From assembly GCA_040755515.1 (NCBI GenBank), contig JBFMAW010000023.1, positions 39,383-103,382 of the forward strand: a stretch of 64,000 nucleotides of DNA. The letters are read 5' to 3'. Origin of the DNA: Thermodesulfobacteriota bacterium (GTDB lineage: Bacteria > Desulfobacterota > Desulfarculia > Adiutricales > JAGVGV01). Below, one piece after another: positions 15,600 through 47,059 of this stretch (position 1 is the first letter of the stretch; every line of letters begins with the position of its first letter). The position numbers and the translations under genes were made by a program. A model generated the notes under the pieces. It did not search any database, was not told where the DNA came from, and saw nothing but the letters and a program-made list of their open reading frames with translations.

Positions 15600-16628
15600 T
15601 CAGTACGCCTCCTCCGAGCTAAGGTCCTTCTCCTTCACCTTTCCGCTGAATAAAATGTTGACCCAGACCTGGTAAGCGATGACCACGGGCACGAAGATCA
15701 AGGCCAGGACCAGCATTATGGTCAAGGTCAGCGAACTGGAGGCGGCGCCGGCCACGGTCACGCTGAACTTAGGGTCCAGGGTCGAGGGCAGCATATAGGG
15801 ATAAAGGCCGACCACTCCGAAAAAGGTCACGCCGATAATGGCCAGGGCCGAGCTGGCCCAGGCCAGCCAGTAGTTCCGCCGGATCAGTAGATGTTTGATG
15901 CCGGCCAGACCGGCCACCGCGATCACGATTATCAAGAACAAGGCCGGATGGGCCAGATAAATATCGTACAGTCGGGTGGACCAGGCGCTGGCGGCCAGGC
16001 AGAGGACGGCCGCGGCCAGCAGCACCGGCCAGAGTTGATGGGCCAGCTTGACCGCTGAGTCGTGAAGGTCTCCCTCCGTCTTGACGGCCAACATAATGGC
16101 GCCGTGGACCAGAAAGAGAAGCAGGAACAGCACGCCGCCCAAAAGACCGTAGGGATTGAGCAAGGTCAGCAGGTTGCCCTGGAACACGCCCTGGCCGTCA
16201 AGGGGCAGCCCGCGGAAGATGTTGGCGAAGGCCACGCCGAGGAGCACGGCCGGAATCAGGCTGCCCAGGAAGACTCCCCAGTCCCATATTTTCTTCCATT
16301 TTTCATCTTCGATCTGGTGGCGGAACTCGAAGGAGACGCCCCGGAAGATCAAGGCAAAGAGCAGTATCATCAAAGGAGTGTAGAAGGCGCTGAACATGAC
16401 CGCGTACATTTTAGGGAAGGCGGCGAAGGTCACCCCGCCGGCGGTCAGCAGCCAGACTTCGTTGCCGTCCCAGAGAGGGCCTATCACGTTATACATGATC
16501 CTTTTTTTTCCTTCGTCCCGGCCCAGGAAGGGTGACAGGACGCCGATGCCCAGGTCATAGCCGTCGGTGATGAAATAAACGGCCCACAAAAGGCCCCACA
16601 ACAAGAACCAGACCGTGGCCAAATCCAT
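15600..16628 (-). CDS. cydB: Cytochrome bd ubiquinol oxidase subunit II
   Basis: MDLATVWFLLWGLLWAVYFITDGYDLGIGVLSPFLGRDE…WDGNEVWLL… conserved CydB N-terminus; polytopic membrane protein. Confidence 0.9.
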   Translation of the reverse strand: MDLATVWFLLWGLLWAVYFITDGYDLGIGVLSPFLGRDEGKKRIMYNVIGPLWDGNEVWLLTAGGVTFAAFPKMYAVMFSAFYTPLMILLFALIFRGVSFEFRHQIEDEKWKKIWDWGVFLGSLIPAVLLGVAFANIFRGLPLDGQGVFQGNLLTLLNPYGLLGGVLFLLLFLVHGAIMLAVKTEGDLHDSAVKLAHQLWPVLLAAAVLCLAASAWSTRLYDIYLAHPALFLIIVIAVAGLAGIKHLLIRRNYWLAWASSALAIIGVTFFGVVGLYPYMLPSTLDPKFSVTVAGAASSSLTLTIMLVLALIFVPVVIAYQVWVNILFSGKVKEKDLSSEEAY

Positions 16629-16662
16629 TTCTCAACCTCCTTGTTTCAACCGACCCGTCGGT

Positions 16663-17967: not shown

Positions 17968-18004
17968 ACTACCTCCTTTCCTTGTTTACGCTTTAGTCTG
18001 GGCC

Positions 18005-18430
18005 CTAGGGCCGGCCTTTGGTTGAAAGGCTCTCTTGGACCAGATCCGCCAGACTGGCCCGGGCCAGTTCCGCGCGCAGGGCTTGACCGGCCCGATTCCA
18101 GGCCCGGTGCACTGGACAGGTACGGCTCCGGGAACAGGAATCCTCATACATCAGGCACTCATTAAGAAATATCCGACCCTCCACGGCTTCCACCACGTCC
18201 AGCAGGGTTATCTGATCCGAGGCCCGGGCCAGGCCATAGCCGCCTTGAGCGCCTTGTACGATTCGGATCAGACCGGCCTCGGCCAATTTCGGCCCGATCT
18301 TGCCTAGGAATTGATAAGGAATTTCCATGGCCTGGGCGATTTCCCGGCGTGAAGCCAGGCGGCCTGGTTTAAGCCCGGCTAGATGCAGGGCGCAACGGAT
18401 GGCGTATTCGCCGGCTCGAGTGAGTCTCAA
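18005..18430 (-). CDS. Rrf2-family (IscR/NsrR-like) transcriptional regulator, first gene of the rrf2-cydAB operon
   Basis: MRLTRAGEYAIRCALHLA… wHTH domain with a C-terminal Cys cluster (CLMYEDSCSRSRTCPVH) typical of Fe-S-sensing Rrf2 regulators. TTG start. Confidence 0.85.
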   Translation of the reverse strand: MRLTRAGEYAIRCALHLAGLKPGRLASRREIAQAMEIPYQFLGKIGPKLAEAGLIRIVQGAQGGYGLARASDQITLLDVVEAVEGRIFLNECLMYEDSCSRSRTCPVHRAWNRAGQALRAELARASLADLVQESLSTKGRP

Positions 18431-25446: not shown

Positions 25447-26589
25447 TTGGGGTATAATATTTTGGAAACCAAATCGTTTGTTACGGAAGAAAATGAAAGC
25501 GTGGTGACAATAAAATTTACTATTGATGCTAATGAGCATACTGTCTATTTTAAGAGTAAGCAGATCCGATTGCAGGATAGCGCGGAAGCTCTTCTGAATT
25601 TTTCAATTCTGCCAAATCTTTATGCTGGTAGTAATTTGAGATTGAATAGACCGATTAGCCGACGGTTATGTAATTCTACCAAGAAGATAATAGATATATT
25701 CTGTAAATGGAATCCAAAATATAACTACGTCGAAATTATTGATGCCGTCCCGGGTAGAACGGAAGATCAGGTTGAACGGAGAGTTGGAGTCTTTTTTTCC
25801 ACCGGGTTAGATTCGATATATACGCTGCTAAAGAATTTACATGAAATTACCGACATGATCTTCATTCATGGTTATGATTTGCGAATTAGCGAGATTGACT
25901 TGAGAAAAAAAACATCCGACATAATAGAACAGATTGGAAGAGAATTTAATAAAAATGTAATTCATGTAGAGACAAATTTAAAGGATGTGTTGGGACAATA
26001 TATCCCCTGGGCCAAGCTTTTACACGGAGCCGCGTTGACTACTATTGGACATATGATGTCACGGCATTTCAGGAAAATATTTATTTCGGCTAATCATACT
26101 TATGCTAATCTTCAACCAAATGGAGCTCATCCTATACTTGATCCCCTGTGGAGTACGGAATCTCTCGAGTTTGAGCATTTCGGCTGCGAGGCAGATAGAA
26201 TAGAGAAAGCTGCTTATATTGCTCAATTCGAAATTGCTTTAAATTCCCTGAGAGTTTGCTGGAAAAAAACAGGTGGGGCCTATAACTGCGGCGAATGCAA
26301 CAAGTGTCTTATTACAATGATTAACTTATATTTGGCAGGCGCATTAGATCGTTGTTCCACATTTGATAAGAAGATAAGTTATTGGAAAATGAAAATGGAA
26401 CTGAACTTCATGCCAGAGGGTTGGCGAGCATACGTAAGGCAAAACATAGATCATCTGGAAAAAACCAATAGTGATAAGAAAATGTTAAAAGCCTTAAGAA
26501 AGATATATAACAGAACTATTTGGGGGTGTTACTTTATAGCTGCTATCAAAAAGGCAGGCATGTTGTATGAAAAATACAAAAAAAGATAG
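25447..26589 (+). CDS. Uncharacterised enzyme-like protein, paralog A: PP-loop-like motif (…GVFFSTGLDS…) plus C-terminal Cys cluster (CWKKTGGAYNCGECNKC)
   Basis: 380 aa. The beta-strand-STGxDS-helix arrangement at ~aa 115 resembles the SGGxDS PP-loop of ATP pyrophosphatases (QueC/WbpG/LarE class) with Gly replaced by Thr. A CxxC-containing Cys cluster is present. TTG start with GGAGG 8 nt upstream. Confidence 0.55.
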   Translation: MGYNILETKSFVTEENESVVTIKFTIDANEHTVYFKSKQIRLQDSAEALLNFSILPNLYAGSNLRLNRPISRRLCNSTKKIIDIFCKWNPKYNYVEIIDAVPGRTEDQVERRVGVFFSTGLDSIYTLLKNLHEITDMIFIHGYDLRISEIDLRKKTSDIIEQIGREFNKNVIHVETNLKDVLGQYIPWAKLLHGAALTTIGHMMSRHFRKIFISANHTYANLQPNGAHPILDPLWSTESLEFEHFGCEADRIEKAAYIAQFEIALNSLRVCWKKTGGAYNCGECNKCLITMINLYLAGALDRCSTFDKKISYWKMKMELNFMPEGWRAYVRQNIDHLEKTNSDKKMLKALRKIYNRTIWGCYFIAAIKKAGMLYEKYKKR

Positions 26590-26639
26590 GAAAAGAAATA
26601 AAATTATACAAAAAAATCTATATATATGGATAGGCAAGA

Positions 26640-28247
26640 ATGAAAGATATTGAAGCACAGGATAACAATGGTGCATCAAACAGAAAGATAAGCGATAAAA
26701 TTAAGATAAGTAAATCGCTGATAATGATAAATTCCGGTAGTTTTATGTTAGCATTTTTGTTGAACATTACCGTCGTCGTTTGGCTACAGCAGTATTTACT
26801 AAAAAGAATTTCGGTGGATGAATATAGCATTTATCCTATAGTTGTTTCAATGATGGTCTTTATATCTTTATTAGAAACAATATTAGTCCCGAGTTTAGTT
26901 AGATATGCGATAGAAGCATTCGCCGTTGGTGATGAAAAGCGGTTAAATCAGGTGTTTTCAACCATGTTATCGCTAACATCCTTTTCCGGAATAGCGATAT
27001 TGTCGGGTGGGATTATATTTTCATGGTATATTGATAGCATTTTCAACATAGCTTCACATCTTGCTTGGGATGCGAGAATCATGATGGCCTTGTTGATTTT
27101 GAATATAAGCGCCGACATTATATTGTCCCCTTATAGAGTTGGATTGAATATACAACAGAAGTATTACCTTATGAATATAATTAAATCACTAGGAGAATTT
27201 TTTCGTTTATTAATTCTATTTGTTCTTTTATTTTCTATAAGCACTAGGATATTATGGGTAGTAGTAGCTACCATAATTAGCAATATAAGTGTTATATTAG
27301 CAAAAGTATACTATTCTCAAAAAGCGATGCCCGGGTTAAGATTTAACAAAAAGGATATTAGGGTCGACCTCTTAAAGAAAATGTTGAATTTTGGCGGTTG
27401 GAATTTCATGTATATGGCAGGCAGGACAATAAGAAATAATTCTGATGTAATAATACTAAACAAGTTTGCCACGGCTTATGATGTCAGCGCGTTTCATATT
27501 GGCAGATTGTTCCATAGATATGCACTTATGAGTTGGGAAATGATACGACTTTCAACTTTTCCTGCCCTGACGGCCATGCACTCTCTTAAAATGGAACAGA
27601 GTCTCAAAAACGCTTATCTACGTGGCGGCAGGTATGCTTTGTGGATAGTGCTTTTTATCGGCGCTCCCCTAGTTGCCTTTAGAGAGGAAGTTATTATATT
27701 ATATTTATCGGAAAAATTTGTAGTTTCAGCTCAAGTACTATTATATTTATTTTTAGCTCTTCCCGCTGAATTAAGCGATATAATGTTAAGTATCATTGCG
27801 AGAGCTAGAGGAAGAATGAAAGAGTTGGCGACGATATACTTGATTATGCAGATAGCAAATATCATACTTACGTTGTACCTTGTCATCGCCTTGAAATCAG
27901 GCTGCGTGGGTTCGGCATTCGGCACTTTCATAACGGCACTAATTTTTGAACCATTGTTTCTTTGGCCGATCGGATTGAAATTGGTAAATCTTTCTCTGAT
28001 GAGATTCATAAGAGAAACAGTCATTCCAGGTATTATACCGGCGTCAGCGGTGGGGTTGTTATATTATGTAATAAAGACACAATTTGAAGTATTAACATTT
28101 ACGCACATTATTGAATGGGTAGCCATCGGTAGTTTAGTTTATACTGGTGTTTTATTCGGATTCTGTTTACAAGCAAGCGATAAAAAAGATTTAGCGGAAG
28201 CTTATATGAAAATACGAGAGATGATATATAGAAAGTTAAGGAGGTGA
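26640..28247 (+). CDS. Oligosaccharide/polysaccharide flippase (Wzx-like, MOP superfamily)
   Basis: 535 aa with ~14 predicted TM helices; size and composition match Wzx/MurJ-type 'polysaccharide biosynthesis protein'. Sits in a glycan locus. Confidence 0.75.
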   Translation: MKDIEAQDNNGASNRKISDKIKISKSLIMINSGSFMLAFLLNITVVVWLQQYLLKRISVDEYSIYPIVVSMMVFISLLETILVPSLVRYAIEAFAVGDEKRLNQVFSTMLSLTSFSGIAILSGGIIFSWYIDSIFNIASHLAWDARIMMALLILNISADIILSPYRVGLNIQQKYYLMNIIKSLGEFFRLLILFVLLFSISTRILWVVVATIISNISVILAKVYYSQKAMPGLRFNKKDIRVDLLKKMLNFGGWNFMYMAGRTIRNNSDVIILNKFATAYDVSAFHIGRLFHRYALMSWEMIRLSTFPALTAMHSLKMEQSLKNAYLRGGRYALWIVLFIGAPLVAFREEVIILYLSEKFVVSAQVLLYLFLALPAELSDIMLSIIARARGRMKELATIYLIMQIANIILTLYLVIALKSGCVGSAFGTFITALIFEPLFLWPIGLKLVNLSLMRFIRETVIPGIIPASAVGLLYYVIKTQFEVLTFTHIIEWVAIGSLVYTGVLFGFCLQASDKKDLAEAYMKIREMIYRKLRR

Positions 28248-29413
28248 ATGCCTTGAGTTTCAATGTTCAGAATGTTAGGACGTTCACCACGCAAGAAGGC
28301 GCCAATGAGGTTGCGCTTGACCTTAACATTGAAAAAGAGATACATCACATTTATTTTAGAAGTGAGAATATAACTCTATTTGATTGCCCAGAGGCTGAAG
28401 TCGCACTCTCCCTACTTTGGCACTTAAAATTCGGAATAGACTTGTCGGTTGATAGATGTGTAAGCAAGCGTTTCCTGGATTCAATGGAACGAGTGATGGA
28501 TATTTATAACACCTGGGATCGCAGCTTAAATCGTATCCGGATAAATACAAAAGAAACCTGCATAAAAGAGAATATAGGATCTGGTAGAGTCGGTTTATTC
28601 TTTTCTACCGGAATAGATTCCTTGTTTACTTTATTGAAGAATCTTGATGAGATCAATGATTTAATTTTTATCCATGGATTTGACTTACGATTAGACGAAA
28701 TTGAATTGAGAAATAAGACTTCTGATATTATAGAAAATATAGGTAAAGAATTCAAGAAAAACGTGATACATATAGAAACCAATTTCCGAGAACGACTTGG
28801 AGATCACTTCTCGTGGGCCAAAATTATGCACGGAGTTACCCTGGCGACGGTGGGACATTTAATATCTCGACACTATAAAAAGATATACATTTCCGCGAAT
28901 CACACTTACGCAAATCTACACCCGGCTGGGGCTCATCCTATCCTTGATCCGCTATGGAGCACCGAATCAACTGAATTCGTTCATTATGGCTGCCAGGCAG
29001 ATAGAATTGAAAAGGCGGCGTTAATCGCGCAATATCCTACGGCCTTAAATTCAATCCGAGTATGCTGGAAAAAAACCGGTGGAGCCTATAATTGCGGAGA
29101 GTGTAACAAATGCGTAAACGCCATGACAAACTTATATTTGGCTGGAGCCTTAGATCATTGTTCCACTTTTAGTAATAAAATAAATTATCGAAAAATGAAA
29201 ATGGCCTTAAACTTTTTAACGGAAGGTGGAAAAGCTTTTGTAATGCAAAATATTTCATATATAGAACGAAACAACGGTGATAAAAAATTGTTGAAAGCTT
29301 TAAAAAAGATACACGATAGACCTTTGTGGAAATGCTATTTTATAGCGGCGATAAAAAAGACAAATATGATTTATGAAACAATGTTAAAAAGAAAGAATAT
29401 AGATCTTAGATAA
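28244..29413 (+). CDS. Uncharacterised enzyme-like protein, paralog B (~70% identical to paralog A over the C-terminal ~270 aa; divergent N-terminal ~110 aa)
   Basis: …VGLFFSTGIDSLFTLLKNLDEINDLIFIHGFDLR…ISANHTYANL…GAHPILDPLWSTES…RVCWKKTGGAYNCGECNKC… aligns colinearly with paralog A. The start overlaps the wzx stop. Confidence 0.55.
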   Translation: MNALSFNVQNVRTFTTQEGANEVALDLNIEKEIHHIYFRSENITLFDCPEAEVALSLLWHLKFGIDLSVDRCVSKRFLDSMERVMDIYNTWDRSLNRIRINTKETCIKENIGSGRVGLFFSTGIDSLFTLLKNLDEINDLIFIHGFDLRLDEIELRNKTSDIIENIGKEFKKNVIHIETNFRERLGDHFSWAKIMHGVTLATVGHLISRHYKKIYISANHTYANLHPAGAHPILDPLWSTESTEFVHYGCQADRIEKAALIAQYPTALNSIRVCWKKTGGAYNCGECNKCVNAMTNLYLAGALDHCSTFSNKINYRKMKMALNFLTEGGKAFVMQNISYIERNNGDKKLLKALKKIHDRPLWKCYFIAAIKKTNMIYETMLKRKNIDLR

Positions 29414-32904: not shown

Positions 32905-34413
32905 CTATTCGTCGGTATCTTCCAGGGCTTCCATCTGGCCGGATTTAATCTGCAACCATAAGCCGCGGCCAATGGAAAGAAAGGCCAGGATCATAAAGGC
33001 CGCGGCGATGGGCCGGGTGAAAAAGATGCCCAGGGACCCCCGCGAGATCAACAGGGACTGGGAAAGAGAAGTCTCGAGCATCTGGGCCAGCACGCTGGCC
33101 AGAACCAGCGGGGCCACGGGGAATTTGAACTTGCGCATGAAGTAACCGATGACTCCGAAAATCAGGGCCACCCACACGTCGAACAAAAGGAAGCGGAGAC
33201 TGTAGGCGCCGATGACGGAAAAGACCACGATCAACGGCCCCAGGATAGGGAAGGGGATGGTGGCGATGCGGGCCCACAACCCCACCAGGGGGAGATTCAA
33301 AACCAGGCAGATGACGTTGCCGATGTACATGCTGGCGATGACCGCCCAGACGAAGCTAGGGTTGTTCTTGAAAAGCAGTGGCCCGGGTTGCAGGCCGTAC
33401 ATCATCAATCCGCCCAGAAGCACGGCCAGGGCCGGGCCGGTGGGCAGGCCGAAGGCGAACAGGGGCACGAAGCCGCCGCTGCACGTGGCGTTGTTGGCCC
33501 CTTCCGGCGCGGCGACCCCTTCTATGGCCCCTTTCCCGAATTCCTCGGGATGCTTCGAGAGTCTCTTTTCAATGTCGTAAGCCACGAAAGTGGTCACCGC
33601 GGGCGCGCAGCCGGGAAGCAAACCCAGGAAAAAGCCTATGCCGGTGGACCTCAGCATGGCGGCCCAGCTGCGTTTGAGGTCGGCCCAGGTGGGCATCCAG
33701 TCAATCTTCTTCCCGCTGTCGTAAATCAGGGCGATCTTTTGTTCGACGTTGGTCAGGACTTCCGCGATGGCGAACAGGCCGATGATGATGCTGATGAAGT
33801 TGACGCCGGCCATCAGGTGGTCGCTGCCGAAAGTGAGGCGGGTGGCGCCGGTGAGAGGGTTCTGGCCGATGAGGGAGACGATCAGGCCGATGGCCATGCC
33901 GATGAACCCCTTGAGCAAGGCCTTGCCGGACAGGCTGATGACCAGGCTCAAGCCCATGAACATCAGGGCGAAATATTCCGGCGGACCGAAGGACAAAGCG
34001 AAATCGGCCAGCACCGGAGTGAAGAAGGTCAAGCCTATGAGACTGACGGTTCCGGCCACGAAGGAGGAAATGGCGGCGATGGCCAGAGCCGGTCCGGCCC
34101 GACCCTGTTTCGACAGGGCGTAACCATCCATGGCCGTGGGCACGGAAGAGGCTTCGCCGGGGATATTGACCACGATGGCGGTGGTCGAGCCGCCGTACAT
34201 GGCCCCGTAATAAATGGCGGCCATCATGATTATGGCCGACGTGGGCGGCAGGAAAGTGGTCAGTGGCAGAAGAATGGCTATGCCGGACGAGGGACCGATG
34301 CCGGGCAGCACTCCGATCAAGGTGCCGATCAGACAACCCACCAGGGCCCAGAGCAGGTTCATCGGAGAAATCGAAGTGATGAAACCCTGCCATAACAGAT
34401 CGAAGGTAAACAT
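32905..34413 (-). CDS. tctA: Tripartite tricarboxylate transporter large permease
   Basis: …GTLIGVLPGIGPSSGIAILLPLTTFLPPTSAIIMMAAIYYGAMYGGSTTAIVVNIPGEASSVPTAMDGYALSKQGRAGPAL… canonical TctA motifs. Confidence 0.9.
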   Translation of the reverse strand: MFTFDLLWQGFITSISPMNLLWALVGCLIGTLIGVLPGIGPSSGIAILLPLTTFLPPTSAIIMMAAIYYGAMYGGSTTAIVVNIPGEASSVPTAMDGYALSKQGRAGPALAIAAISSFVAGTVSLIGLTFFTPVLADFALSFGPPEYFALMFMGLSLVISLSGKALLKGFIGMAIGLIVSLIGQNPLTGATRLTFGSDHLMAGVNFISIIIGLFAIAEVLTNVEQKIALIYDSGKKIDWMPTWADLKRSWAAMLRSTGIGFFLGLLPGCAPAVTTFVAYDIEKRLSKHPEEFGKGAIEGVAAPEGANNATCSGGFVPLFAFGLPTGPALAVLLGGLMMYGLQPGPLLFKNNPSFVWAVIASMYIGNVICLVLNLPLVGLWARIATIPFPILGPLIVVFSVIGAYSLRFLLFDVWVALIFGVIGYFMRKFKFPVAPLVLASVLAQMLETSLSQSLLISRGSLGIFFTRPIAAAFMILAFLSIGRGLWLQIKSGQMEALEDTDE

Positions 34414-34437
34414 GGATCACCCGTTATAACCCAGCCG

Positions 34438-34899
34438 TCACCAGGAGAGAGGCCCAACCGGAAAAGCCAGGCCCAGAAAGCGTATGAAAACGAACAGGAT
34501 CAAGACGCTGGTGGCAAGTCCTACTATGGCCGCCCGCCCTATTTTCTTTTCCAGAAACCAAATGTGGAAAGACAGATAGAGCAGCGTGGCCAGCGGGAAG
34601 CCCAAAGGACTGATCAAGACGAGGTAAAGACAGAACGCGGCGTAGCTGATGGCCAGGCGGCCCCACCCGCCGCGGTCGGGCCACTCGATCAACACCGCCG
34701 GCCCCTGGTATTGCCAGGCCCGGAAGCTGAGCAGCAAGCCGGTGACGATCAGCAGGACGCCCATGACCACAGGCAAGGTCCGGGGGGGTAGCTTTTCGGC
34801 AAAGGCGGCCTCGATTTGAAAGGCGGCGATGATTATCCCCAGACCCACCGCCGCCAGCACCAGGCCGACCACCAGGTCCGCTACACGTTGGGTTTTCAT
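34438..34899 (-). CDS. tctB: Tripartite tricarboxylate transporter small subunit
   Basis: 153 aa, 4 TM helices, positioned between tctC and tctA. Confidence 0.7.
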   Translation of the reverse strand: MKTQRVADLVVGLVLAAVGLGIIIAAFQIEAAFAEKLPPRTLPVVMGVLLIVTGLLLSFRAWQYQGPAVLIEWPDRGGWGRLAISYAAFCLYLVLISPLGFPLATLLYLSFHIWFLEKKIGRAAIVGLATSVLILFVFIRFLGLAFPVGPLSW

Positions 34900-34929
34900 G
34901 GCCTGCCCCGCTTCAGCCCGGCCGTGATT

Positions 34930-35901
34930 CTATTTCTTGATGGCCCTTACTTCCTTGACCAGGTCCTTGTACACGGCCACCTTGTTCTTGATGTAGTCCA
35001 CGCTCTCGGCATGGCCCATGGCCAGGGGCACGAAGCCCTGCTCGGTCATTTCCTTCATTATGGCCGGGTCCTGGGCGATCTTCAGGAAGACCGATTCGAG
35101 TTTGGCGATTATTTCTTTGGGCGTGCCCGGAGGAACGGCCACGCCTCGATCAACGGAGTGGATCACTTCATAGCCCAGTTCCTTGAAGGTGGGCGCTTCC
35201 GGGAAAGCGCTGAAACGTTGGGTCGAGGCAAAGGCCAGGACGCGGACCTTGTCTTTATAACGCACCAGGTCGTCGGAGTTGCCCAGGCAGGCGTCGGTGT
35301 GCCCTCCCAGGAAGGCGGTCATCTGGGGGGCCGAGCCGGTGAAAGGCACGTAGGTCACCTTGCAGCCCGTGGCCTTCTCGAAATGCAGGGTGGTGAAGTG
35401 AGGTCCGGAAAATACGGCCGATCCGCCCACGGTCAGTTTTTCCGGGTCCTTCTTGGCCGCTTCGACCAAGTCCTTCAGAGTTTTGTACGGGCTGGTGTTG
35501 AGAACGGTCAAGGCCATCCAGGTCCGTTGAAACAGGGCCACGGGCACGATCTGTTCCGTCTTGTAACCTACGTTTTGCTGCATGGGCTGGAGGATGACGT
35601 GGGGAATATTAAAACCGGCGAAAAAATACCCGTCGGGTTTGCCGTTGGCCAGTTCCTTCCAGCCAAGGGCTCCCCCGCCGCCGACTTTATAATCTATTAT
35701 CACCTGCTGGCCCAGGAGCTTGATCAGATGGGGTTGCTGGCGCCGGGCTTCCCGGTCGGACTGGCCGCCCGGATCGAAGGTGATCAGGTAGGTGAGCTGT
35801 TTGGACGGATAATCTTTTTCCGCGCTCCAGGCCAGAGGAGGGAATGGTTTGAGGCATAAAGCCAGGGTAAAGATCAGGGCCAGGATCATGATCCGCTTCA
35901 T
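34930..35901 (-). CDS. tctC: Tripartite tricarboxylate transporter substrate-binding protein (Bug/TctC family)
   Basis: Signal peptide plus …YPSKQLTYLITFDPGGQSD…IDYKVGGGGALGWKELANGKPDGYFFAGFN… TctC signatures. Confidence 0.85.
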   Translation of the reverse strand: MKRIMILALIFTLALCLKPFPPLAWSAEKDYPSKQLTYLITFDPGGQSDREARRQQPHLIKLLGQQVIIDYKVGGGGALGWKELANGKPDGYFFAGFNIPHVILQPMQQNVGYKTEQIVPVALFQRTWMALTVLNTSPYKTLKDLVEAAKKDPEKLTVGGSAVFSGPHFTTLHFEKATGCKVTYVPFTGSAPQMTAFLGGHTDACLGNSDDLVRYKDKVRVLAFASTQRFSAFPEAPTFKELGYEVIHSVDRGVAVPPGTPKEIIAKLESVFLKIAQDPAIMKEMTEQGFVPLAMGHAESVDYIKNKVAVYKDLVKEVRAIKK

Positions 35902-36217
35902 AATCTAAGTCCTCCTTGTCGCCTTCACCCGACCGGGTTTCTGATCGGGCGTCGTGATGACATTTGGTTTTATAAAAACTCCGAGCGTTAATGATTTATC
36001 CTTAAGCCAACCCCGGCTTCCTGTCAAGCCGAGGGTTCGGCTGCTGGACAAGAGAGGCTTTGACTATAGACCACGGCCCCATTTGAGTCCTTGTTCAAGT
36101 CGGCCTGTTCATGTCCTGGTAGTGGTTTTATATTGGATGCCTTTTTGGTATTATGGGGTTTCCCTGGAACGGCGGTCCGCCATCGGGCCAGGGAAACGTT
36201 ACAGATCATAGGGAGGT

Positions 36218-36502
36218 TTGAGAATGATTCAATTCCTGGTTCACGAACAGGCCGACTCGGTGGGCGTGGCGACGGTGGACATCAAGGCCGGCGAAACCGT
36301 TCGGGGCCTTTTCATGGACAACCAGACGCCCATTGAAATCAAGGCCCTCGACGACATCCCCCTGGGGCACAAGATCGCTCTCAAGGATCACGCCGCGGGC
36401 GAGGCGGTTATCAAATACGGACATGACATCGGTCGGGTCGTTCAGCCTATTAAAAAGGCGGAACACGTCCACATTCACAATTTGAAAACCAAAAGGTGGT
36501 AG
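36218..36502 (+). CDS. UxaA-family dehydratase small subunit (SAF domain; altronate/galactarate dehydratase N-terminal part)
   Basis: 94 aa …[12 protein letters not shown]…[37 protein letters not shown]… SAF-domain pattern. Overlaps the large-subunit start. Confidence 0.75.
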
Positions 36503-37668
36503 CCATGAAGAATTACCAAGTCCAGGGATATCGTCGCGAGAACGGGCGGGTGGGTATCCGCAACCATGTGGTCATCCTGCCTTTGGACGACCTGTCCAAC
36601 GCGGCCTGCGAGGCCGTGGCCAACAACATAAAGGGAACCAGGGCCATACCCCATGCCTACGGCCGGCTGCAGTTCGGCGAAGACTTGAAGCTGTTCTTTC
36701 GCACCATCATCGGCACCGGCGCCAATCCCAACGTGGCCGCCTGCGTGGTGATCGGGATCGAGCCGGAGTGGACCAACCTCGTGGTGGAAGGCATAGCCCG
36801 GACGGGCAAGCCGGTCACCGGTTTTGCCATCGAACGCGCGGGCGACCTGGCCACCATCGCCGCCGCTTCCCAAAAGGCCAAGGAATACGTTCAATGGGCT
36901 TCCGAACTCAGGCGGGCAGAATGCGAGCTCAGGGATATCTGGGTATCGGTCAAATGCGGCGAATCGGACACCACCTCGGGGCTGGCCTCCAACCCCACCG
37001 TGGGCAACGCCATTGACAAGCTGGTGGAACTAGGCGCGACCTGTTCCTTCGGCGAGACTTCCGAGATAACCGGCGCGGAAATGGTCTGCCGGGAAAGGGC
37101 GGCCAACAAGGAGATCGGCGACCGGTTCTATAAAGTCTGGTCCGACTACAACGACTTTATCAACGCCAACAAGACCGATGACCTGTCCGGCTCGCAGCCG
37201 ACCAAGGGCAACATCCGGGGCGGGCTGACCACCATCGAGGAAAAGGCTTTCGGCAATCTGCAGAAAATAGGGAAGAAGGCCCGCTACGTCGGCGTGTTGG
37301 AGCCGGCCGAGGCGCCGGCCGGGCCGGGCCTCTGGTTCATGGACACTTCCTCGGCGGCGGCCGAAGCGGTCACGCTCTGGGCCGCGGCCGGCTTCGTGGC
37401 CCATTTCTTCCCCACCGGCCAGGGCAACATCATCGGTAATCCCATCGAACCGGTAATAAAGCTCTCGGCCAACCCCTTGACCGTCAGGACCATGCGGGAG
37501 CACATTGATTTTGACTGCTCGGCCATCCTGCGAGGAGAGATGACCCTGGATCAAGCCGGCGATGGCCTGCTGGACATGCTGGTCAGGACCGGCAACGGCC
37601 GTCTGACCGCCAACGAGGTCTTGGGGCACTTCGAGTTCGTACTGACCAAACTCTACCGCAGCGCCTGA
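36496..37668 (+). CDS. UxaA-family sugar-acid dehydratase large subunit (D-galactarate/altronate dehydratase-like)
   Basis: …[32 protein letters not shown]…[14 protein letters not shown]…[23 protein letters not shown]…[16 protein letters not shown]… UxaA C-domain motifs. Confidence 0.8.
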
Positions 37669-37715
37669 TCGCCGGCGGTCCCAACCCCGCGGCCTTTTTC
37701 AGGGCCGCGGGGCTT

Positions 37716-38987
37716 TCAGTCGCCATTTCCTTCGGCCCGATAGAAATAGGTGGTGTTGGCGTTGGGCACCACGGCCACCCGGGGCCGGCCCGGCCGCTCA
37801 GCCAGCCAGCGGTCCAGGGTCTCCTGGGCCGGCCGCGGCGCCAGATAACAGCGCCGCAGGTCTTCGGCGGACATCTCCGACTCGATCGCCACCTCGTACC
37901 GGCTCAAGGTCCGGCCAAAAAGATAGGCTTTGTGAGCCCCCATCCTGAAGCCGCCCCTTCTAAAGTCTTCCATGGCTTCCCGGCAGGAATCGAAGCGGCT
38001 GACGTAATCGAAATAAACCTGGTCCCCGACGCCCTGGTCGCAGGAGGCCAGCAGCAATATTCCGCCGCCCGGCTTGACGGCCCGGGAGGCCAGGTTGAGC
38101 CCTTTTTGAGCCTGATATAAACAGATGTCCTTGGGATATCCCCCGCAGGAAGCCACAGCCAGGTCATACTGTTCCGAGATGGCCACGCCGTAAACCCTGG
38201 CGCAGGTTTGAGCCCCCCGCCGGAGCACGGCCATTGGTTCGCCGGCCCAGAGTCCCACCGCCCTTTTGTCCGGATCCAGGACCACGTTTACTGCCAGGTC
38301 CACGCCGGCCAGACGGCCGATGTCGTTCAGGTCTTCCCGGACGGGGTTGCCGTCCAGCCGGCCGGCTTCGGCGCCGTCCTGGAACATCAGACTATGGTTG
38401 TGTTCGATGGTCGCCGGCGAAGCGCAACCGATGGCCACGCCTTTGGCTCCGCCGGTGAAGCCCACGAACTGATGGGGGTCAATCTGGCCGATAACCATCT
38501 TCAAGTCGGCCTGGGAATATTCGGTGTTGATCGCCACCGGTGTTCCCCGGCTGGTGCGCCCGAGGTCGGTCAAGGGCGAAAGGTGGGGATCGTGGATCAC
38601 CATCCGGCATTCCAGAGACACTTCCGGAGGAACCCAGAGCCGGGCTCGATCTGAACCCATCCGCGGATGGAGCCCGCCGCCTATGATAATGCTGATGTCC
38701 TCCGGCTCTAAGTTCGAATAAGCGTTGAAGAGGCGCCGCAGAACGACCGGTAGGATTGCTTTAAAGGGAACCGGTCGGCTTTCATCGGGTAGGGCGATAG
38801 CCACGCGTCGGGGCGGCGGTCGATCTTCCAACCTGGCGGCCTCGAGAGGTGAATCGAGGGCCTGCTTTACGGCATGTTCGAGGTCCGTCAGGGTTGGGTG
38901 GGGAGAAGGGGCCAGAAAGACGATCTCGGCCCGATCCGGAAGGCTCAGGGTTTTGTATCCTTGTCCATATTTTAGCTTTATCTCCAT
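37716..38987 (-). CDS. LarA-like (lactate racemase family / DUF2088) protein; candidate Ni-pincer-dependent alpha-hydroxy-acid racemase or epimerase
   Basis: 423 aa; the N-terminal domain pattern (…RRVAIALPDESRPVP…IIIGGGLHP…) and overall length match the LarA family, from memory of the family. Confidence 0.6.
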   Translation of the reverse strand: MEIKLKYGQGYKTLSLPDRAEIVFLAPSPHPTLTDLEHAVKQALDSPLEAARLEDRPPPRRVAIALPDESRPVPFKAILPVVLRRLFNAYSNLEPEDISIIIGGGLHPRMGSDRARLWVPPEVSLECRMVIHDPHLSPLTDLGRTSRGTPVAINTEYSQADLKMVIGQIDPHQFVGFTGGAKGVAIGCASPATIEHNHSLMFQDGAEAGRLDGNPVREDLNDIGRLAGVDLAVNVVLDPDKRAVGLWAGEPMAVLRRGAQTCARVYGVAISEQYDLAVASCGGYPKDICLYQAQKGLNLASRAVKPGGGILLLASCDQGVGDQVYFDYVSRFDSCREAMEDFRRGGFRMGAHKAYLFGRTLSRYEVAIESEMSAEDLRRCYLAPRPAQETLDRWLAERPGRPRVAVVPNANTTYFYRAEGNGD

Positions 38988-39543
38988 GCGCCGCCTCGTT
39001 CTTGATTCCGTAACATTATGGTCCGCCGGGTCGGTTTTGGCAACCCAAGACGTGGGATATCGTCTGGAACGGCCGCGCTCGATTCGAATAGACCTCGACG
39101 TTCACCGTTCACCCGTAGGCTGGGCGGGACCATAAGCGGGCGAGCCCTGGGTCTCATCTTCTGAAGGGATGGATTGAAGGGAGACTTGCCCGCCTCCGGC
39201 ATAGTGAAACTTCCTCAACTTAATTCCAACCCTGGAGGGGGATAGCCCTCTCCCGGCGATAAAATTCATCGTCGTTTTTATTAAAAATGATTTCTTGACT
39301 GGTATGTTTTTACAAATATACTAATCCTTATGTAGGTAGAGGGAAATATAAGGTCTGCCGCCAGGTTGCCTTATCCAGTCTTCCATAAGCTCAGCCTGCT
39401 CAAAAGACATCACTGGCGTTCCAGGCCGCGGAAGAAAAGACGCGAGGAAGGCCTCAAGGACTTTTTACGGGTTTCCGCCTTCAAGCCATCGCCGCGGGCG
39501 GATATGACCTGATGACGTCCCTATTCCTGGAAAGGAGGTCGAA

Positions 39544-41637: not shown

Positions 41638-42636
41638 TCAGATCACGGAAGCCAAAGCCGTTTTGAGATGAGCCAGGGAAGTGTTGCCGCCGGAACAGAT
41701 CAGACCGACTTTGGTCCCGGCCAAGACTGATTTGAGGCGATAGGCCGCGGCCAGAGGGCTGGCTCCAGCGGCTTCGGCCAAAGTGTGGGCGCATTCGATC
41801 ATCCAGACCATGGCCTGCCTGATCTCGTCATCGTCGACCAGGATGAAGTCGTCCAAATCCCGCCATAGAATGCTCTGAGGCAGTTCAAAACCGGCTCCCG
41901 TGGCCAGACCTTCGGCGAAGGTGCGGCAAGGGGCCGTGACCATCTTTCTTTGGCGCCAGCATTCATAGGCCGCCGGAGCTTGAGCGCTTTGAACGCCGAT
42001 GATCCTTATCCGGGGATTGACGGCCTTGGCCGCCAGACAGGCGCCGGCCGCGCCGCTGCCTCCGCCCACGGGCACGATCAAAGTCTCGAGGTCGGGCTGG
42101 TCTTCCAGCATCTCCAGGGTCTCCGTGGCCACTCCGGCGATCAACAGCGGTTCGTTGCCCGAATTGATGTAACGGCACCCAATAGTCTCGGTCAGGACCT
42201 CGCAATGGCGTTTGGCTTCTTCAAAGTCCCGTCCGTGAAGGATGACTTCCGCGCCCAGACCCCGCATGGCCGCCACCTTCCCGGGATTAGCCCCTTCCGG
42301 GACCACGATGCGGGCCTGGACGTTGAACAGGCGGGCGGCATAGGCTATGGATTGTCCGTGGTTGCCCGTGGAAGCTCCGATGACTCCCCTGGAACGCTCT
42401 TCCGATGTGAGCCGCGCCATCAAGTTGATTCCGCCCCGCACCTTGAAGGCTCCAACCGGCTGGTAGTTTTCATGTTTGATGAAAACGTCGGCGCCGATCA
42501 ATTGGCTGACCGCCGGGAAGGCGTGCAGAGGGGTCCGGGGTAGATATCGGGAAATGACCCGCCGGGCCGAAAGAACGTCTTTGAATTCAAGAAGGGCTGG
42601 GTTATCCGCGGCTTTAATATCCGATTCAGTTTTCAT
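41638..42636 (-). CDS. PLP-dependent threonine/serine dehydratase (threonine ammonia-lyase family, no ACT domain)
   Basis: …FIKHENYQPVGAFKVRGGINLMARL… (PLP Lys motif) and …GGGSGAAG… glycine loop. Confidence 0.8.
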   Translation of the reverse strand: MKTESDIKAADNPALLEFKDVLSARRVISRYLPRTPLHAFPAVSQLIGADVFIKHENYQPVGAFKVRGGINLMARLTSEERSRGVIGASTGNHGQSIAYAARLFNVQARIVVPEGANPGKVAAMRGLGAEVILHGRDFEEAKRHCEVLTETIGCRYINSGNEPLLIAGVATETLEMLEDQPDLETLIVPVGGGSGAAGACLAAKAVNPRIRIIGVQSAQAPAAYECWRQRKMVTAPCRTFAEGLATGAGFELPQSILWRDLDDFILVDDDEIRQAMVWMIECAHTLAEAAGASPLAAAYRLKSVLAGTKVGLICSGGNTSLAHLKTALASVI

Positions 42637-44068: not shown

Positions 44069-44308
44069 ATGGCGGCGGATGATATTAAAGTGGATGAGGG
44101 ATTGTGCGCTGGTTGCCTTCGCTGCGCGCTGGCCTGTTCGAGTCTGTACACCGGGGAGTACAACGCGGAGCTGGGTCGGATTCGCGTCGAGGCTGACGGC
44201 GTTCAGATGAAGGTTTGGTTTACCGAAGAATGCCCGAACTGCGGTCATTGCGTCGGTTTCTGCTTTTACGGCGCCTTGAGCCAGGTCGGGCCCGAGACTC
44301 GGTCATGA
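44069..44308 (+). CDS. Small ferredoxin-like 4Fe-4S protein, probable electron acceptor/partner of the downstream AOR
   Basis: CAGCLRCALAC… and …CPNCGHCVGFC Cys motifs; the stop overlaps the AOR start (ATGA). Confidence 0.6.
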   Translation: MAADDIKVDEGLCAGCLRCALACSSLYTGEYNAELGRIRVEADGVQMKVWFTEECPNCGHCVGFCFYGALSQVGPETRS

Positions 44309-46161
44309 CCGGTCGTGGTTTCGCCGGCCGTGTATTACGGGTGGACCTGACCGCCGGCCGATGTCAATCCGAACCGTTGGATATGACATTGGCTGAAAAA
44401 TTCGCCGGGGGTCTGGGCCTGACCATCAGGCTGGCGGCGAATGAGGTCCGGCCCGGCGTCGAGCCGTTGGCGCCGGAGAACGCCGTCGTTTTGGGAGTGG
44501 GGCCGTTGGTCGGGACGGAAGTCCCGTCCTCATCCAGACTGTACTCTGTGACCGTCCTGCCGGCCAGTGGGACCTTGGGCTGGTGCGGCGCGGGCGGGGT
44601 GACCCTGGCCGCTCAACTCAAACAGGCCGGATTCGACCACATAGTCATCACCGGCCGGTCGGCCCGGCCGGCCATGCTCAGGATCGAAGACGGACGAGCC
44701 GAACTCGTCGAGGCCGGACGCCTCTGGGGACTGGGCACGGCTGAAACGGCCCGGGCCGTCTGGGAAAGCGATCCCTGGCCGGCCGGCGTTCTGACCATCG
44801 GTCCGGCCGGTGAAAACCGATCGTCCCTGGCCATGGCCTACGTCAATCGACTGGCCACCCTGGGCCGCGGCGGACTGGGAGCCGTTCTGGGCGCCAAGAA
44901 CCTGAAAGCGGTTCTGGTACGGGGCCACGGCGGAGTTGAAGTCCATGATCAGAAGCGGATTCGCGGCCTGGTGGATGGCTTGCTGGCCCGAATGCGAAAC
45001 TGGCCGCAACTGGCCGCCTGGCATGACCTGGGCATGATCAATTCCTTCCCTTTCATACCCGTTGACGTCTACCGGGAGATCAAATTGCGTCGGGTGGCCT
45101 GCGTGAGCTGCCCGATCGGCTGCAAGGACGTGGTCCGAATAAGGGACGGCCGCTTCGCCGGGTTCACCACCTGCTCCAGTTCGGCGATCAATCTGTTCAC
45201 GCCGGTCATCTACGGTTTCAAGGATTATCGGGAGGCGGTCAGACTGGTGGCCGAACTGGACGAATACGGGCTGGACATGTTCGAGTTTTTCGGCGTCATG
45301 AAAGCCGTTTCCAACCTGGTGGAACAGGGAACCATACCGGCCCGGGAAATCGAACCTCCCCTCGTTCTGGATTCCTTCGACTCCATGTCGGCCTGGGCCG
45401 GAAAGACTGCCCGCCGGGAAGGTTTGGGGCAAATCCTGGCCGACGGTTTCAAAGGCCTGCTGGACTCTTTCGGCGCTCAGGCCCGCCCGGCCCTGCCGGC
45501 CTTGGTTAAAAACATGCACCCTTATACCGGTCCCGGTTCAGCCCTGCCTTGGGACCTGTTCGGCACCATGGAACTGGGCCAGGTCCTGGACCCCCGGGGC
45601 CCTCACGTGGGCTCGGGAGGTTCGCCCACCTATTTCGCCAAAAGACCCCTGGAAGTATTTCCCGGCCACCTGCAAAGAATGGGCGTTCCGGACGAGGCGG
45701 CGGCGCGGATACTGGACAATTCCAGACTCGACGTGGGCCGGCTGCTTAAATACTCGCATACCTGGTTCGCTGCTTTGGGCTGCCTGGGATTATGCGCCCG
45801 GGCCCAGATAAACCGTTTTTACAGCGCCCGTCTCTGCGCCGATATCTACCAGGCCGTGACCGGCTTCCCCGGCGGCGTGGACGAGCTTAGACTCAAGGCC
45901 GAGCGGGCCTGGAACCTGTTGAGGCTTTTAAACCTGCGCTTGGGTTTTGATCCCCGTAACCTTGAAACTCCGCCGGACAGATGGTTCCAGACGCCGGGGT
46001 TCAAGGAATACGTCGCGGAGCAACCGCTGAACCGCGGCCAGGTCGAGCGCATGATTGAGGACTACTATGACGAGTGGGGCTGGGATCTGGCCACTGGAGC
46101 TCCCAAGGCGGAAACCCTGGCCAGGCTCGGCCTGACCGAATATGCCCTGAAAAAGGAATGA
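44305..46161 (+). CDS. Aldehyde:ferredoxin oxidoreductase (tungsten/molybdopterin AOR family)
   Basis: N-terminus MTGRGFAGRVLRVDLTAGR… is the typical AOR family start. [4Fe-4S] Cys ligands are present (…VACVSCPIGCKD…). Full length of ~620 aa. Confidence 0.85.
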   Translation: MTGRGFAGRVLRVDLTAGRCQSEPLDMTLAEKFAGGLGLTIRLAANEVRPGVEPLAPENAVVLGVGPLVGTEVPSSSRLYSVTVLPASGTLGWCGAGGVTLAAQLKQAGFDHIVITGRSARPAMLRIEDGRAELVEAGRLWGLGTAETARAVWESDPWPAGVLTIGPAGENRSSLAMAYVNRLATLGRGGLGAVLGAKNLKAVLVRGHGGVEVHDQKRIRGLVDGLLARMRNWPQLAAWHDLGMINSFPFIPVDVYREIKLRRVACVSCPIGCKDVVRIRDGRFAGFTTCSSSAINLFTPVIYGFKDYREAVRLVAELDEYGLDMFEFFGVMKAVSNLVEQGTIPAREIEPPLVLDSFDSMSAWAGKTARREGLGQILADGFKGLLDSFGAQARPALPALVKNMHPYTGPGSALPWDLFGTMELGQVLDPRGPHVGSGGSPTYFAKRPLEVFPGHLQRMGVPDEAAARILDNSRLDVGRLLKYSHTWFAALGCLGLCARAQINRFYSARLCADIYQAVTGFPGGVDELRLKAERAWNLLRLLNLRLGFDPRNLETPPDRWFQTPGFKEYVAEQPLNRGQVERMIEDYYDEWGWDLATGAPKAETLARLGLTEYALKKE

Positions 46162-46165
46162 CGAC

Positions 46166-47059
46166 ATGTCCCGGCCACTTAGCGGCGTGATGCCGCCCGT
46201 GATCACTCCTTTTCAAGACGAGGAACTGGACCTCGAGGCTTTTAAAGCCAACTTCGAGCGCTGGAACGAGACCGGACTGACAGGTTATCTGGTCTTAGGG
46301 TCTAACGGCGAAAACGCTTATCTGTCGGATGGGGAAAAAGAACAGGTCCTGGCCGCGGCCAGGGAAGCAGTGCCGCCGGAGAAAATCTTCCTAGCCGGCG
46401 CCGGTTGCGAATCCACCCGGGCCACCATTCATCTATGCCGGCGCGCCGCCGATCTGGGCGCCGACGGCTGCCTGATCCTCACGCCGGCCTACTTCAAAGG
46501 TCAAATGACGGCCGAGCGTTTGGAAAGCCATTACCGCCGGGTGGCCGATGCCTCGCCTCGACCCGTGCTGATATATAATTTCCCCCAAGCGACCGGCTTG
46601 AACCTCGGGCCGGATTCCGTGGCCCGCCTGGCCGAACATCCTAATATAGTCGGCCTGAAGGACAGCTCGGGCAACGTGTCCCAGCTAGGCGAGATTCTGC
46701 GCCAGGTTCCGGCCGGCTTTTCGGTGTTCTCCGGGAACGCCGAGGTTTTTTATCCGGCCTTGTGCCTGGGAGCCGTGGGCGGCATTCTGGCCGTGGCCAA
46801 CGTGGTTCCGGAAATATGCCTGGCCATATATGATCGGTTTTTGTCCGGCGACTACACCCGAGCTCGGGACCTCCAGCTAAAGGTCGGCCGTCTGGCCGCC
46901 CTCGTGACCAGGATACATGGAGTGCCCGGCCTCAAGGCGGCCATGATGCAAGCGGGGTATCAGCCGGGAGGCGTTCGTTCGCCGCTGACCATGCCGGTTT
47001 CGGAAGTGACGGCCGGCCTGGCCGCGGAATTGAAAGACCTGCTCCAAGGATGCGAGTGA
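46166..47059 (+). CDS. DapA-family lyase/aldolase (dihydrodipicolinate synthase / KDG-aldolase / N-acetylneuraminate lyase family)
   Basis: …GVMPPVITPF…TGYLVLGSNGE…IYNFP… and a Schiff-base Lys region (…VGLKDSSG…). Confidence 0.8.
   Translation: MSRPLSGVMPPVITPFQDEELDLEAFKANFERWNETGLTGYLVLGSNGENAYLSDGEKEQVLAAAREAVPPEKIFLAGAGCESTRATIHLCRRAADLGADGCLILTPAYFKGQMTAERLESHYRRVADASPRPVLIYNFPQATGLNLGPDSVARLAEHPNIVGLKDSSGNVSQLGEILRQVPAGFSVFSGNAEVFYPALCLGAVGGILAVANVVPEICLAIYDRFLSGDYTRARDLQLKVGRLAALVTRIHGVPGLKAAMMQAGYQPGGVRSPLTMPVSEVTAGLAAELKDLLQGCE

Follow-up and report, generated by a model that had tools for sequence, protein, structure and literature searches.

A probable 3-sulfolactate uptake, racemization and desulfonation module with a LarA-family enzyme in a Thermodesulfobacteriota bacterium

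The gene cluster and its layout

A 64-kb stretch of contig JBFMAW010000023.1 from a Thermodesulfobacteriota bacterium (hereafter the window, meaning all 64,000 nucleotides that were analyzed) contains six clustered genes for an importer of the tripartite tricarboxylate transporter (TTT) type, TctCBA, a two-piece enzyme of the UxaA family, identified below as SuyAB, and a homolog of the racemase LarA (hereafter LarAH). A preliminary description of this DNA had set tctCBA divergent from the two-piece enzyme and the larA homolog convergent with it; the gene coordinates and this layout both stand, and each of the six products has Pfam matches. The features of the region are as follows.

32905..34413, minus strand: tctA, large TTT permease subunit (PF01970, 539 bits), a predicted sulfolactate importer subunit, SlcG-like
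34438..34899, minus strand: tctB, small TTT permease subunit (PF07331, 62 bits)
34930..35901, minus strand: tctC, periplasmic solute-binding protein (PF03401, 153 bits), a predicted sulfolactate binder, SlcH-like
35902..36223, no strand: divergent intergenic control region between tctC and suyA, with one sigma-70-like site per strand
36224..36502, plus strand: suyA, small SAF-domain subunit of 92 amino acids (PF08666)
36505..37668, plus strand: suyB, large catalytic UxaA-family subunit of 387 amino acids (PF04295 and PF20629)
37685..37712, no strand: GC-rich hairpin in the suyB/larAH gap with a perfect 10-bp stem, a likely bidirectional terminator
37716..38987, minus strand: larAH, LarA-superfamily protein of 423 amino acids (PF09861 and PF21113), a predicted 3-sulfolactate racemase
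39015..39043, minus strand: sigma-70-like promoter candidate of larAH, by consensus match only

The intergenic region across which tctCBA and suyAB diverge is 322 bp long. The start of suyA is taken as the ATG at 36224, which follows an AGGGAGG motif (the mechanical open reading frame begins at a TTG at 36218), and the ATG of suyB lies 2 nt past the suyA stop codon, so that a two-subunit enzyme is encoded on adjacent genes. larAH lies convergent with suyB, with 47 bp between it and the suyB stop codon. Genes for the biosynthesis of nickel-pincer nucleotide (NPN), which LarA-type enzymes need as a cofactor, had been reported as missing from the window, and a Pfam scan of all non-overlapping open reading frames of at least 200 amino acids across the 64 kb indeed returned zero LarB, LarC and LarE domains.

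Identity of the enzymes and the importer

Judged by sequence, the two-piece UxaA-family enzyme is an ortholog of SuyAB, the (2R)-3-sulfolactate sulfo-lyase (EC 4.4.1.24). When SuyB was compared by tblastn with 72,556 plasmids, 13 records matched at 62-72% identity and the next at 39%, with none in between. The high-identity band consists of sulfonate loci, among them those of Cupriavidus pinatubonensis (LacI-hpsN-hpsO-MFS-dehydrogenase-SuyA-SuyB), Paracoccus versutus (GntR-SuyA-SuyB-sulfate exporter, which is the suyRABZ layout of P. pantotrophus), Paracoccus seriniphilus (GntR-SuyA-SuyB-TTT-hydroxyacid dehydrogenase-Ldh_2-exporter; locus L004) and Methylobacterium oryzae (TauE-SuyA-SuyB-...-oxidoreductase-Ldh_2). 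The window SuyB is 66.1% identical to SuyB of C. pinatubonensis and 68.1% identical to that of P. versutus, which share 64.1% with each other; the corresponding values for SuyA are 49, 48, and 44%. A UxaA-type subunit from Desulfitobacterium is 62% identical to both the window SuyB and C. pinatubonensis SuyB, and the closest metagenomic relatives of the window SuyB carry the Joint Genome Institute label “(2R)-sulfolactate sulfo-lyase subunit beta.”

The P. pantotrophus enzyme is known to depend on Fe(II) and to split (R)-sulfolactate into pyruvate and sulfite. Sulfolactate is also cleaved by the SuyAB of Desulfovibrio sp. DF1 when made as a recombinant protein, and conservation of SuyB exceeds 70% across Desulfovibrio, proteobacteria and Desulfitobacterium (PMC6278857). 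By analogy with these characterized orthologs, the window SuyAB would form sulfite and pyruvate from (R)-sulfolactate. A four-cysteine set conserved in other UxaA/GarD enzymes is reported to be missing from SuyAB (Watanabe et al., 2019); of the two cysteines compared here with E. coli GarD, that of the VRCGA motif is replaced by leucine in the window protein and that of CGxSD is kept. The pair had initially been read as a split dehydratase of a sugar or hydroxy acid, a claim that falls on two grounds. The galactarate dehydratase equivalog TIGR03248 gives the window SuyB 140.4 bits, below its cut-off of 730.85, which indicates membership at the superfamily level only, and the 66-68% identity to SuyB is separated from everything at or below 39%. 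Since the enzyme is a SuyAB ortholog, its expected substrate is 3-sulfolactate, and not the tartrate, galactarate, altronate, malate or lactate that the preliminary description had listed for growth tests.

The importer is consistent with the same substrate. TctC has a hydrophobic, signal-peptide-like N-terminus (MKRIMILALIFTLALCL) and shares 37% identity with the SlcH-like protein of P. seriniphilus, compared with 28% for an unrelated TTT binding protein; TctA is 35% identical to the fused TTT permease encoded beside suyAB-slcC-comC in the same species. In loci that combine LarAH and SuyAB (surveyed below), TctC homologs are 59-65% identical to the window protein, those of TctB 31-37%, and TctA of loci L034, L035, and L042 63-79%. 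TTT genes beside suyAB are induced on sulfolactate in Taurinivorans muris (PMC10507020). Because of this induction and the higher identity to the SlcH-like protein, TctCBA is predicted to import sulfolactate.

LarAH scores 148 bits against PF09861 and 47 bits against PF21113, and its structural matches are to Mar2 (6D6Z, E = 3e-72) and LarA (5HUQ, E = 3e-38). The model NF052595, “nickel-dependent malate racemase, LarAH5 family,” gives it 552.9 bits against a cut-off of 462, and it falls below the cut-offs of the LarAH6 model (353.7 vs. 500) and the LarA model (235.9 vs. 460). Alignment to Lactiplantibacillus plantarum LarA (LarA residues in parentheses) places the NPN-binding residues at D68 and R71 (D72, R75), the catalytic histidines at H107 and H172 (H108, H174), the NPN-tethering lysine at K182 (K184), the nickel-ligating histidine at H198 (H200) and the carboxylate-binding residues at Y291, Q292, and K295 (Y294, Q295, K298). 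All of these positions are invariant in 25 relatives, and the doubt, raised at the outset, that the protein might lack the catalytic His/Lys residues of LarA does not hold. At the specificity positions LarAH has Q173-F174, G-H352-K353 and then Y-L-F-x-R, which is the pattern of Mar1, the LarAH5 enzyme of Desulfitobacterium hafniense, and differs from that of Mar2 (YK ... A-V-I-x-E). The lysine of the GHK motif, which is common to Mar2 and has been proposed there to bind the distal anionic group (the second carboxylate of malate), is kept as K353. A neighbor-joining tree puts the window LarAH in a clade of Desulfobacterota that has 100% bootstrap support, and this clade joins that of Mar1 at 73-87%, with Mar2 and group 6 outside. 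LarAH is thus probably an NPN-dependent 2-hydroxyacid racemase of the LarAH5 family, and is predicted to be a 3-sulfolactate racemase of an undescribed one-enzyme type.

Mar1 (Dhaf_4417) is described as a malate racemase whose Km for L-malate is 55 mM and whose kcat/Km is 0.39 s-1 mM-1, and its authors noted that malate is perhaps not its native substrate, suggesting tartrate or 2-hydroxysuccinamate (Desguin et al., 2020; PMC7583248). For group 5, COG2721 “altronate dehydratase” is entered in their Table S1 at 100%, TctC at 26%, TctA at 26% and a GAF/sigma-54 regulator at 16%, an association that was left uninterpreted; LarB, LarC, and LarE are associated with other LarAH groups at ~28-42% and have no entry under group 5 (PMC7583248). 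A 2024 follow-up keeps LarAH5 as malate racemase (MAR) without mention of sulfolactate, and promiscuous tartrate epimerization is known for MAR-type enzymes. In papers on sulfonates up to December 2025, sulfolactate inversion is ascribed only to SlcC/ComC. A search of the literature (subscription-only papers lay outside it) found none linking sulfolactate to LarA, nickel-pincer, lactate racemase or DUF2088, and the phrase “sulfolactate racemase” is absent from the papers searched. As far as the searchable literature goes, a sulfolactate racemase function for LarAH therefore appears not to have been described before. The module as a whole had been called unexplored, which appears to be true of this assignment and not of the rest: SuyAB with a TTT importer is an already known sulfolactate system, and the association of LarAH5 with COG2721 and TctC was tabulated in 2020.

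The representative of the 90%-identity cluster of Dhaf_4417 (92% identical to it) is encoded in the order SAF-UxaA-LarAH-TctC-TctA-TctB-GntR-Ldh_2. Desulfosporosinus has GntR-SAF-UxaA-LarAH-TctCAB-Ldh_2, and the cluster is closed by a transporter of the SLAC1/TehA (TDT) family (L088:13953-15101). The yeast sulfite efflux pump Ssu1 belongs to this family, and the Desulfosporosinus protein may likewise export sulfite. Two Desulfosporosinus-type loci (L089:2681-4119 and L090:2690-4128) carry a second, truncated gene with only the Lar_N domain (293 amino acids) and an open reading frame of 186 amino acids; they lie by genes for triose-phosphate isomerase, class II aldolase and aldose epimerase, upstream of suyAB-larAH-tctCAB.

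Conserved neighborhoods and the proposed pathway

With an alignment of the window LarAH clade as query, a survey in which each GTDB species was represented by one genome gave 318 relatives. The best 80 of these (49-60% identity), almost all from Desulfobacterota metagenome-assembled genomes (MAGs), were examined for their neighbors by tblastn. SuyA was present in 69 of the 80 loci and SuyB, at 59-86% identity, in 65; TctC was found in 49, TctA in 45 and a ComC-like protein in 15. Among the LarAH copies flanked by 2.5 kb or more on each side, suyAB lay within 5 kb in 66 of 76. The linkage varies with residue 355, being 58/61 for the Tyr type found in the window and 8/15 for the Phe type (Fisher p = 3e-4). 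This residue was considered as a marker of specificity and is not diagnostic, eight Phe-type genes being suyAB-linked all the same.

Most frequently a divergent sigma-54/GAF regulator is followed by larAH-suyA-suyB-tctC-tctA-tctB. Genes for an aldehyde:ferredoxin oxidoreductase (AOR), a DhpA-like beta-hydroxyacid dehydrogenase and a TRAP transporter often lie downstream of this cluster, and sulfoquinovose-isomerase-like, PfkB, class II aldolase and ComC-like (“L-sulfolactate dehydrogenase”) genes sometimes lie upstream; these neighbors match proteins of strain DF1 that are induced by 2,3-dihydroxypropane-1-sulfonate (DHPS). Other orders are suyA-suyB-larAH, larAH and suyAB ~3 kb apart, and the convergent arrangement of the window. 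At least four gene orders thus occur across two phyla, with larAH mostly co-directional with suyAB in the relatives, and an isolate-type Desulfovibrio assembly (GCA_000422565.1) carries this gene set as well. The recurrence of the set in Thermodesulfobacteriota and Bacillota in several gene orders is clustering far beyond chance.

Five LarAH loci without suyAB (L010, L018, L033, L043, and the truncated L047) share other neighbors. In four of them LarAH adjoins ComA, a phosphosulfolactate synthase (TIGR03849, 334 bits vs. a cut-off of 280; PF02679); L047 shows only the SlcC-like dehydrogenase, not ComA. The D-2-hydroxyacid dehydrogenase of these loci shares 46-51% identity with SlcC-like genes found next to SuyB in other loci. 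A conserved protein of 343 amino acids with no assigned family also adjoins LarAH in the ComA-type loci, and an aspartate aminotransferase is encoded in L033 and L043. Sulfolactate is the sole metabolite common to SuyAB and ComA. The ComA-type arrangement, a LarAH paralog by ComA and a SlcC-like dehydrogenase, is that of Syntrophales-type MAGs (L033, L043:14400-18700, L010, and L018), and in L033 (5900-17600) two MtaA/CmuA-type methylcobamide:coenzyme M (CoM) methyltransferases and a corrinoid protein are encoded near the paralog. These loci look like coenzyme-M-type sulfolactate chemistry in bacteria.

A complementary sample was centered on SuyB and comprised 80 metagenomic loci (69-86% identity) and 8 plasmid loci. 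LarAH occurred in 18 loci, the SlcC and ComC pair in 13 with adequate flanks, and both together in none (Fisher p = 0.002). None of the eight plasmid loci, all from Proteobacteria or Rhodococcus, had LarAH. In the window, tblastn found no homologs of SlcC, ComC (both at E = 1e-3 or better), ComA or DhpA-like proteins.

There is good reason to think that the module serves 3-sulfolactate uptake, racemization and desulfonation in an anaerobic bacterium, by means of a TTT importer, an NPN-dependent racemase and SuyAB. Periplasmic TctC would bind sulfolactate and TctBA would import it. SuyAB would beta-eliminate sulfite from the (2R)-enantiomer in an Fe(II)-dependent reaction, leaving pyruvate. LarAH would racemize sulfolactate by a proton-coupled, transient hydride transfer via 3-sulfopyruvate held in the active site, with K353 holding the distal sulfonate as proposed for the second carboxylate of malate. 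(S)-sulfolactate, the form expected from sulfoquinovose and DHPS breakdown, could thus reach the (R)-specific SuyAB, and LarAH would take the place of the two-dehydrogenase “racemase,” SlcC and ComC, of Chromohalobacter, Paracoccus, and Taurinivorans. Pyruvate would be the source of carbon and electrons and sulfite the electron acceptor for dissimilatory sulfite reduction. The idea of a racemase feeding a stereospecific enzyme so that both enantiomers are used was already in the preliminary description; its logic of an importer, a LarA-family racemase and a C3-eliminating enzyme is retained, and the chemistry and substrate class it proposed are not.

The observations themselves comprise the gene content, the orthology of SuyAB, a LarA-type catalytic apparatus that is intact and the conserved linkage of the LarAH clade to sulfolactate enzymes. 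The assignment of a sulfolactate racemase draws on the catalytic residues, gene context and substrate analogy. On balance, suyAB-linked LarAH5 proteins, both those of the window's Desulfobacterota clade and those of the Desulfitobacteriaceae Mar1 group, are probably single-enzyme 3-sulfolactate racemases, acting where anaerobes mineralize sulfoquinovose, DHPS and sulfolactate, and not malate racemases.

Several points weigh against this interpretation. The substrate of LarAH is predicted from gene context and analogy, the protein is only 36% identical to Mar1, and both NCBIfam and published assays name LarAH5 malate racemase, an activity Mar1 does possess (PMC7583248). For TctC, the 37% identity to the SlcH-like protein is modest, and its ligand too is predicted from sequence. 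About 20 of the SuyB loci have neither LarAH nor SlcC/ComC. Distant LarAH5-like members from Neomoorella, an Archaeoglobaceae MAG and Desulfitibacter lack a nearby suyAB, and the sulfolactate assignment is therefore limited to the suyAB- and ComA-linked clades. Neomoorella glycerini (L178:2853-7514) has tctC-tctB-tctA-larAH-thiS with no suyAB within 6 kb, on which account the wider LarAH5-like clade probably includes enzymes for a different TTT-imported substrate. The window also lacks larB, larC, and larE. Finally, L. plantarum LarA is inhibited tightly and reversibly by sulfite, which forms a covalent NPN adduct and has been described both as a mixed inhibitor and as a “protectant” (10.1101/2022.11.09.515893). 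As SuyAB releases sulfite, LarAH would need low sulfite, or could be subject to control by sulfite feedback.

The arrangement of larAH in the window adds a further such point, for it is a separate convergent unit detached from suyAB by a strong hairpin and a promoter-like site of its own. The hairpin has an all-GC, perfectly paired 10-bp stem (CCCCGCGGCC / GGCCGCGGGG) with a folding energy of -33.3 kcal/mol on the plus strand (z = -3.5) and -33.9 kcal/mol on the minus strand. It is likely a bidirectional terminator, a function suggested by its structure and with a weak U-tract. The promoter candidate, TTGCCA-17-CATAAT, matches 10 of 12 consensus positions and lies 28 bp upstream of the start codon. 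Because of these two elements, co-expression of larAH with suyAB is not established. Between tctC and suyA, sigma-70-like sites lie at 36127-36154 (plus) and 36232-36205 (minus). This intergenic region has no sigma-54 site (-24/-12, TGGCAC-N5-TTGC, with at most two mismatches), and matches across the window were fewer than in shuffled sequences. In the window there is no homolog of the sigma-54/GAF regulator found with the cluster in 58 related loci, and no regulator adjoins the window module.

Of the competing explanations, the best placed, yet an unlikely one, is that LarAH isomerizes another 2-hydroxy acid, such as tartrate, 2-hydroxysuccinamate or a sulfonated C4 acid, and shares only regulation or transport with SuyAB. 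The suggestions of Desguin et al. (2020), the promiscuity of MAR-type enzymes toward tartrate and the clade members without a nearby suyAB all lend it some weight; however, tartrate- or amide-metabolizing genes do not recur in the neighborhoods, and the two independent recurrent partners of LarAH (SuyAB and ComA) meet only at sulfolactate.

Improbable too, and ranked below it, is that LarAH is a genuine malate racemase, with the TTT system importing D/L-malate and SuyAB lying nearby through co-regulation of unrelated organic-acid genes. The NF052595 score of 553 bits exceeds the cut-off, Mar1 and Mar2 racemize malate in vitro, LarAH shares the GHK motif with Mar2, and di- and tricarboxylates are common TTT cargo. 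Yet the Km of Mar1 for malate is 55 mM and its assignment was doubted by its own authors, and the loop/helix-14 signature of LarAH (QF ... Y-L-F-x-R) is not that of Mar2. Moreover, malic enzyme, fumarase and malate dehydrogenase are absent from the module and do not recur in the 80 loci, whereas linkage to SuyAB (66/76 loci) or ComA survives rearrangements across two phyla.

That LarAH is inactive in an organism unable to make NPN, leaving a module for (R)-sulfolactate only, is very unlikely. The 64-kb window does lack larBCE and larAH is transcriptionally detached from suyAB, but the open reading frame is intact with every catalytic residue conserved, and lar biosynthetic genes are often unlinked from larA homologs (Table S1, PMC7583248). 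Least credible of all is a catabolic module for tartrate, galactarate or altronate with the split UxaA enzyme as dehydratase: both pieces fall, according to Pfam, within the galactarate/altronate dehydratase superfamily, the one matching solved structure is that of E. coli GarD, and the superfamily has been proposed to include a heteromeric L-fuconate dehydratase, but the equivalog score (140 bits vs. 731) and the identity of the large subunit (66-68% to SuyB, at most 39% to other split UxaA proteins) speak for SuyAB, and the 80 loci carry sulfoquinovose- and DHPS-type genes, not uronate or aldarate genes, with neither 2-keto-3-deoxygluconate (KDG) kinase nor 2-keto-3-deoxy-6-phosphogluconate (KDPG) aldolase recognized among their recurrent neighbors.

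3-Sulfolactate, a sulfonate of plant and algal origin, is together with DHPS a major currency of the sulfur cycle, and both come from a sulfoquinovose pool of ~10 Pg per year. If LarAH is a sulfolactate racemase, this would answer an open question of the LarA field, the native substrate of Mar1, and close a stereochemical gap in how sulfate and sulfite reducers break down DHPS and sulfolactate anaerobically. It would also correct a “malate racemase” annotation propagated through NCBIfam and link organosulfonate respiration and the formation of H2S to nickel and NPN biosynthesis, so that sulfide production driven by organosulfonates would require nickel. Sulfite could then throttle or protect the racemase as a built-in feedback, and the nested subclade whose genes lie by those for ComA and for CoM-type methyltransferases would carry this chemistry over into the making of sulfolactate in Syntrophales.

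Other features of the window and comparison with known systems

Two further genes of the window were considered as pathway members and rejected. The aldehyde:ferredoxin oxidoreductase at 44215-46161 is only 26% identical to the AOR family of larAH-suyAB loci; it is followed by a DHDPS-family gene (the pair spanning 44215-47059, 5 kb from the module), and a link of this pair to the module is unsupported. The pyridoxal phosphate-dependent, threonine-dehydratase-like gene at 41638-42636 was a candidate for a CuyA-like sulfo-lyase, but it matches only threonine/serine dehydratase models and does not recur in related loci.

Elsewhere in the window, three open reading frames on the plus strand at 25447-29413 (380, 535, and 389 amino acids) have a GC content of 36-37%, compared with ~59% for the contig, and no Pfam match. 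They lie among UDP-glucose dehydrogenase, Wzz and epimerase genes, and are probably a horizontally acquired polysaccharide cassette (O-antigen or exopolysaccharide). At 1724-10749 on the minus strand is an island of the type VI secretion spike/effector type, with a PAAR-like open reading frame, DUF3540, a pentapeptide-repeat protein, a 1250-amino acid protein with DUF2169 and pentapeptide repeats and a 1013-amino acid VgrG with collagen triple-helix repeats. Subunits I and II of a cytochrome bd oxidase are encoded at 15600-18430, an oxygen-defense feature in a presumed anaerobe, and the adjoining open reading frame upstream is, from its sequence, a candidate Rrf2-type regulator.

The closest known pathway is that of slcHFG-slcC-comC-suyAB, described in Chromohalobacter salexigens (Denger and Cook, 2010) and Taurinivorans muris (PMC10507020) and also present in the P. 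seriniphilus locus L004. It has in common with the window a TTT importer and SuyAB, a means of converting (S)- to (R)-sulfolactate, and pyruvate and sulfite as products. The inversion itself differs: in the slc-suy pathway it is carried out by the NAD(P)-dependent SlcC and ComC through free sulfopyruvate, whereas the window has a single LarA-family NPN enzyme in their place. A further difference from the slc-suy pathway is that no GntR regulator (SuyR) adjoins the window genes, nor does a sulfate/sulfite exporter (SuyZ, TauE).

Mar1 of D. hafniense resembles the window LarAH in its NF052595 family, in a clade that excludes Mar2, in the QF/GHK/Y-L-aromatic-x-R signature and in having suyA, suyB, and tctCAB as neighbors. 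The two differ in sequence, at 36% identity, and in layout, larAH of the window being convergent to suyAB. The published activity of Mar1 is malate racemization, and sulfolactate was never among the substrates assayed. With L. plantarum LarA (5HUQ) the window protein shares the fold, the two histidines, the NPN-tethering lysine and the nickel-ligating histidine. The LarA pocket residues F175, F176, W358, and T359 correspond to Q173, F174, H352, and K353 in the window, a pocket that, from its predicted composition, fits a substrate with a second anionic group.

The DHPS pathway of Desulfovibrio sp. DF1 (DhpA, SlaB/AOR, and SuyAB) belongs to an anaerobic sulfite respirer in which SuyAB likewise frees sulfite from sulfolactate (Burrichter et al., 2018; PMC6278857), and in relatives of the window locus genes for DhpA-like proteins and aldehyde:ferredoxin oxidoreductases lie by larAH-suyAB. 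The window module corresponds to the sulfolactate part of that pathway only, without DHPS or sulfolactaldehyde dehydrogenases, and the DF1 study did not address stereochemistry or a racemase (PMC6278857). Taken with these systems, the module is most likely a variant of the known sulfolactate pathway in which a nickel-pincer enzyme replaces the two-dehydrogenase inversion system.

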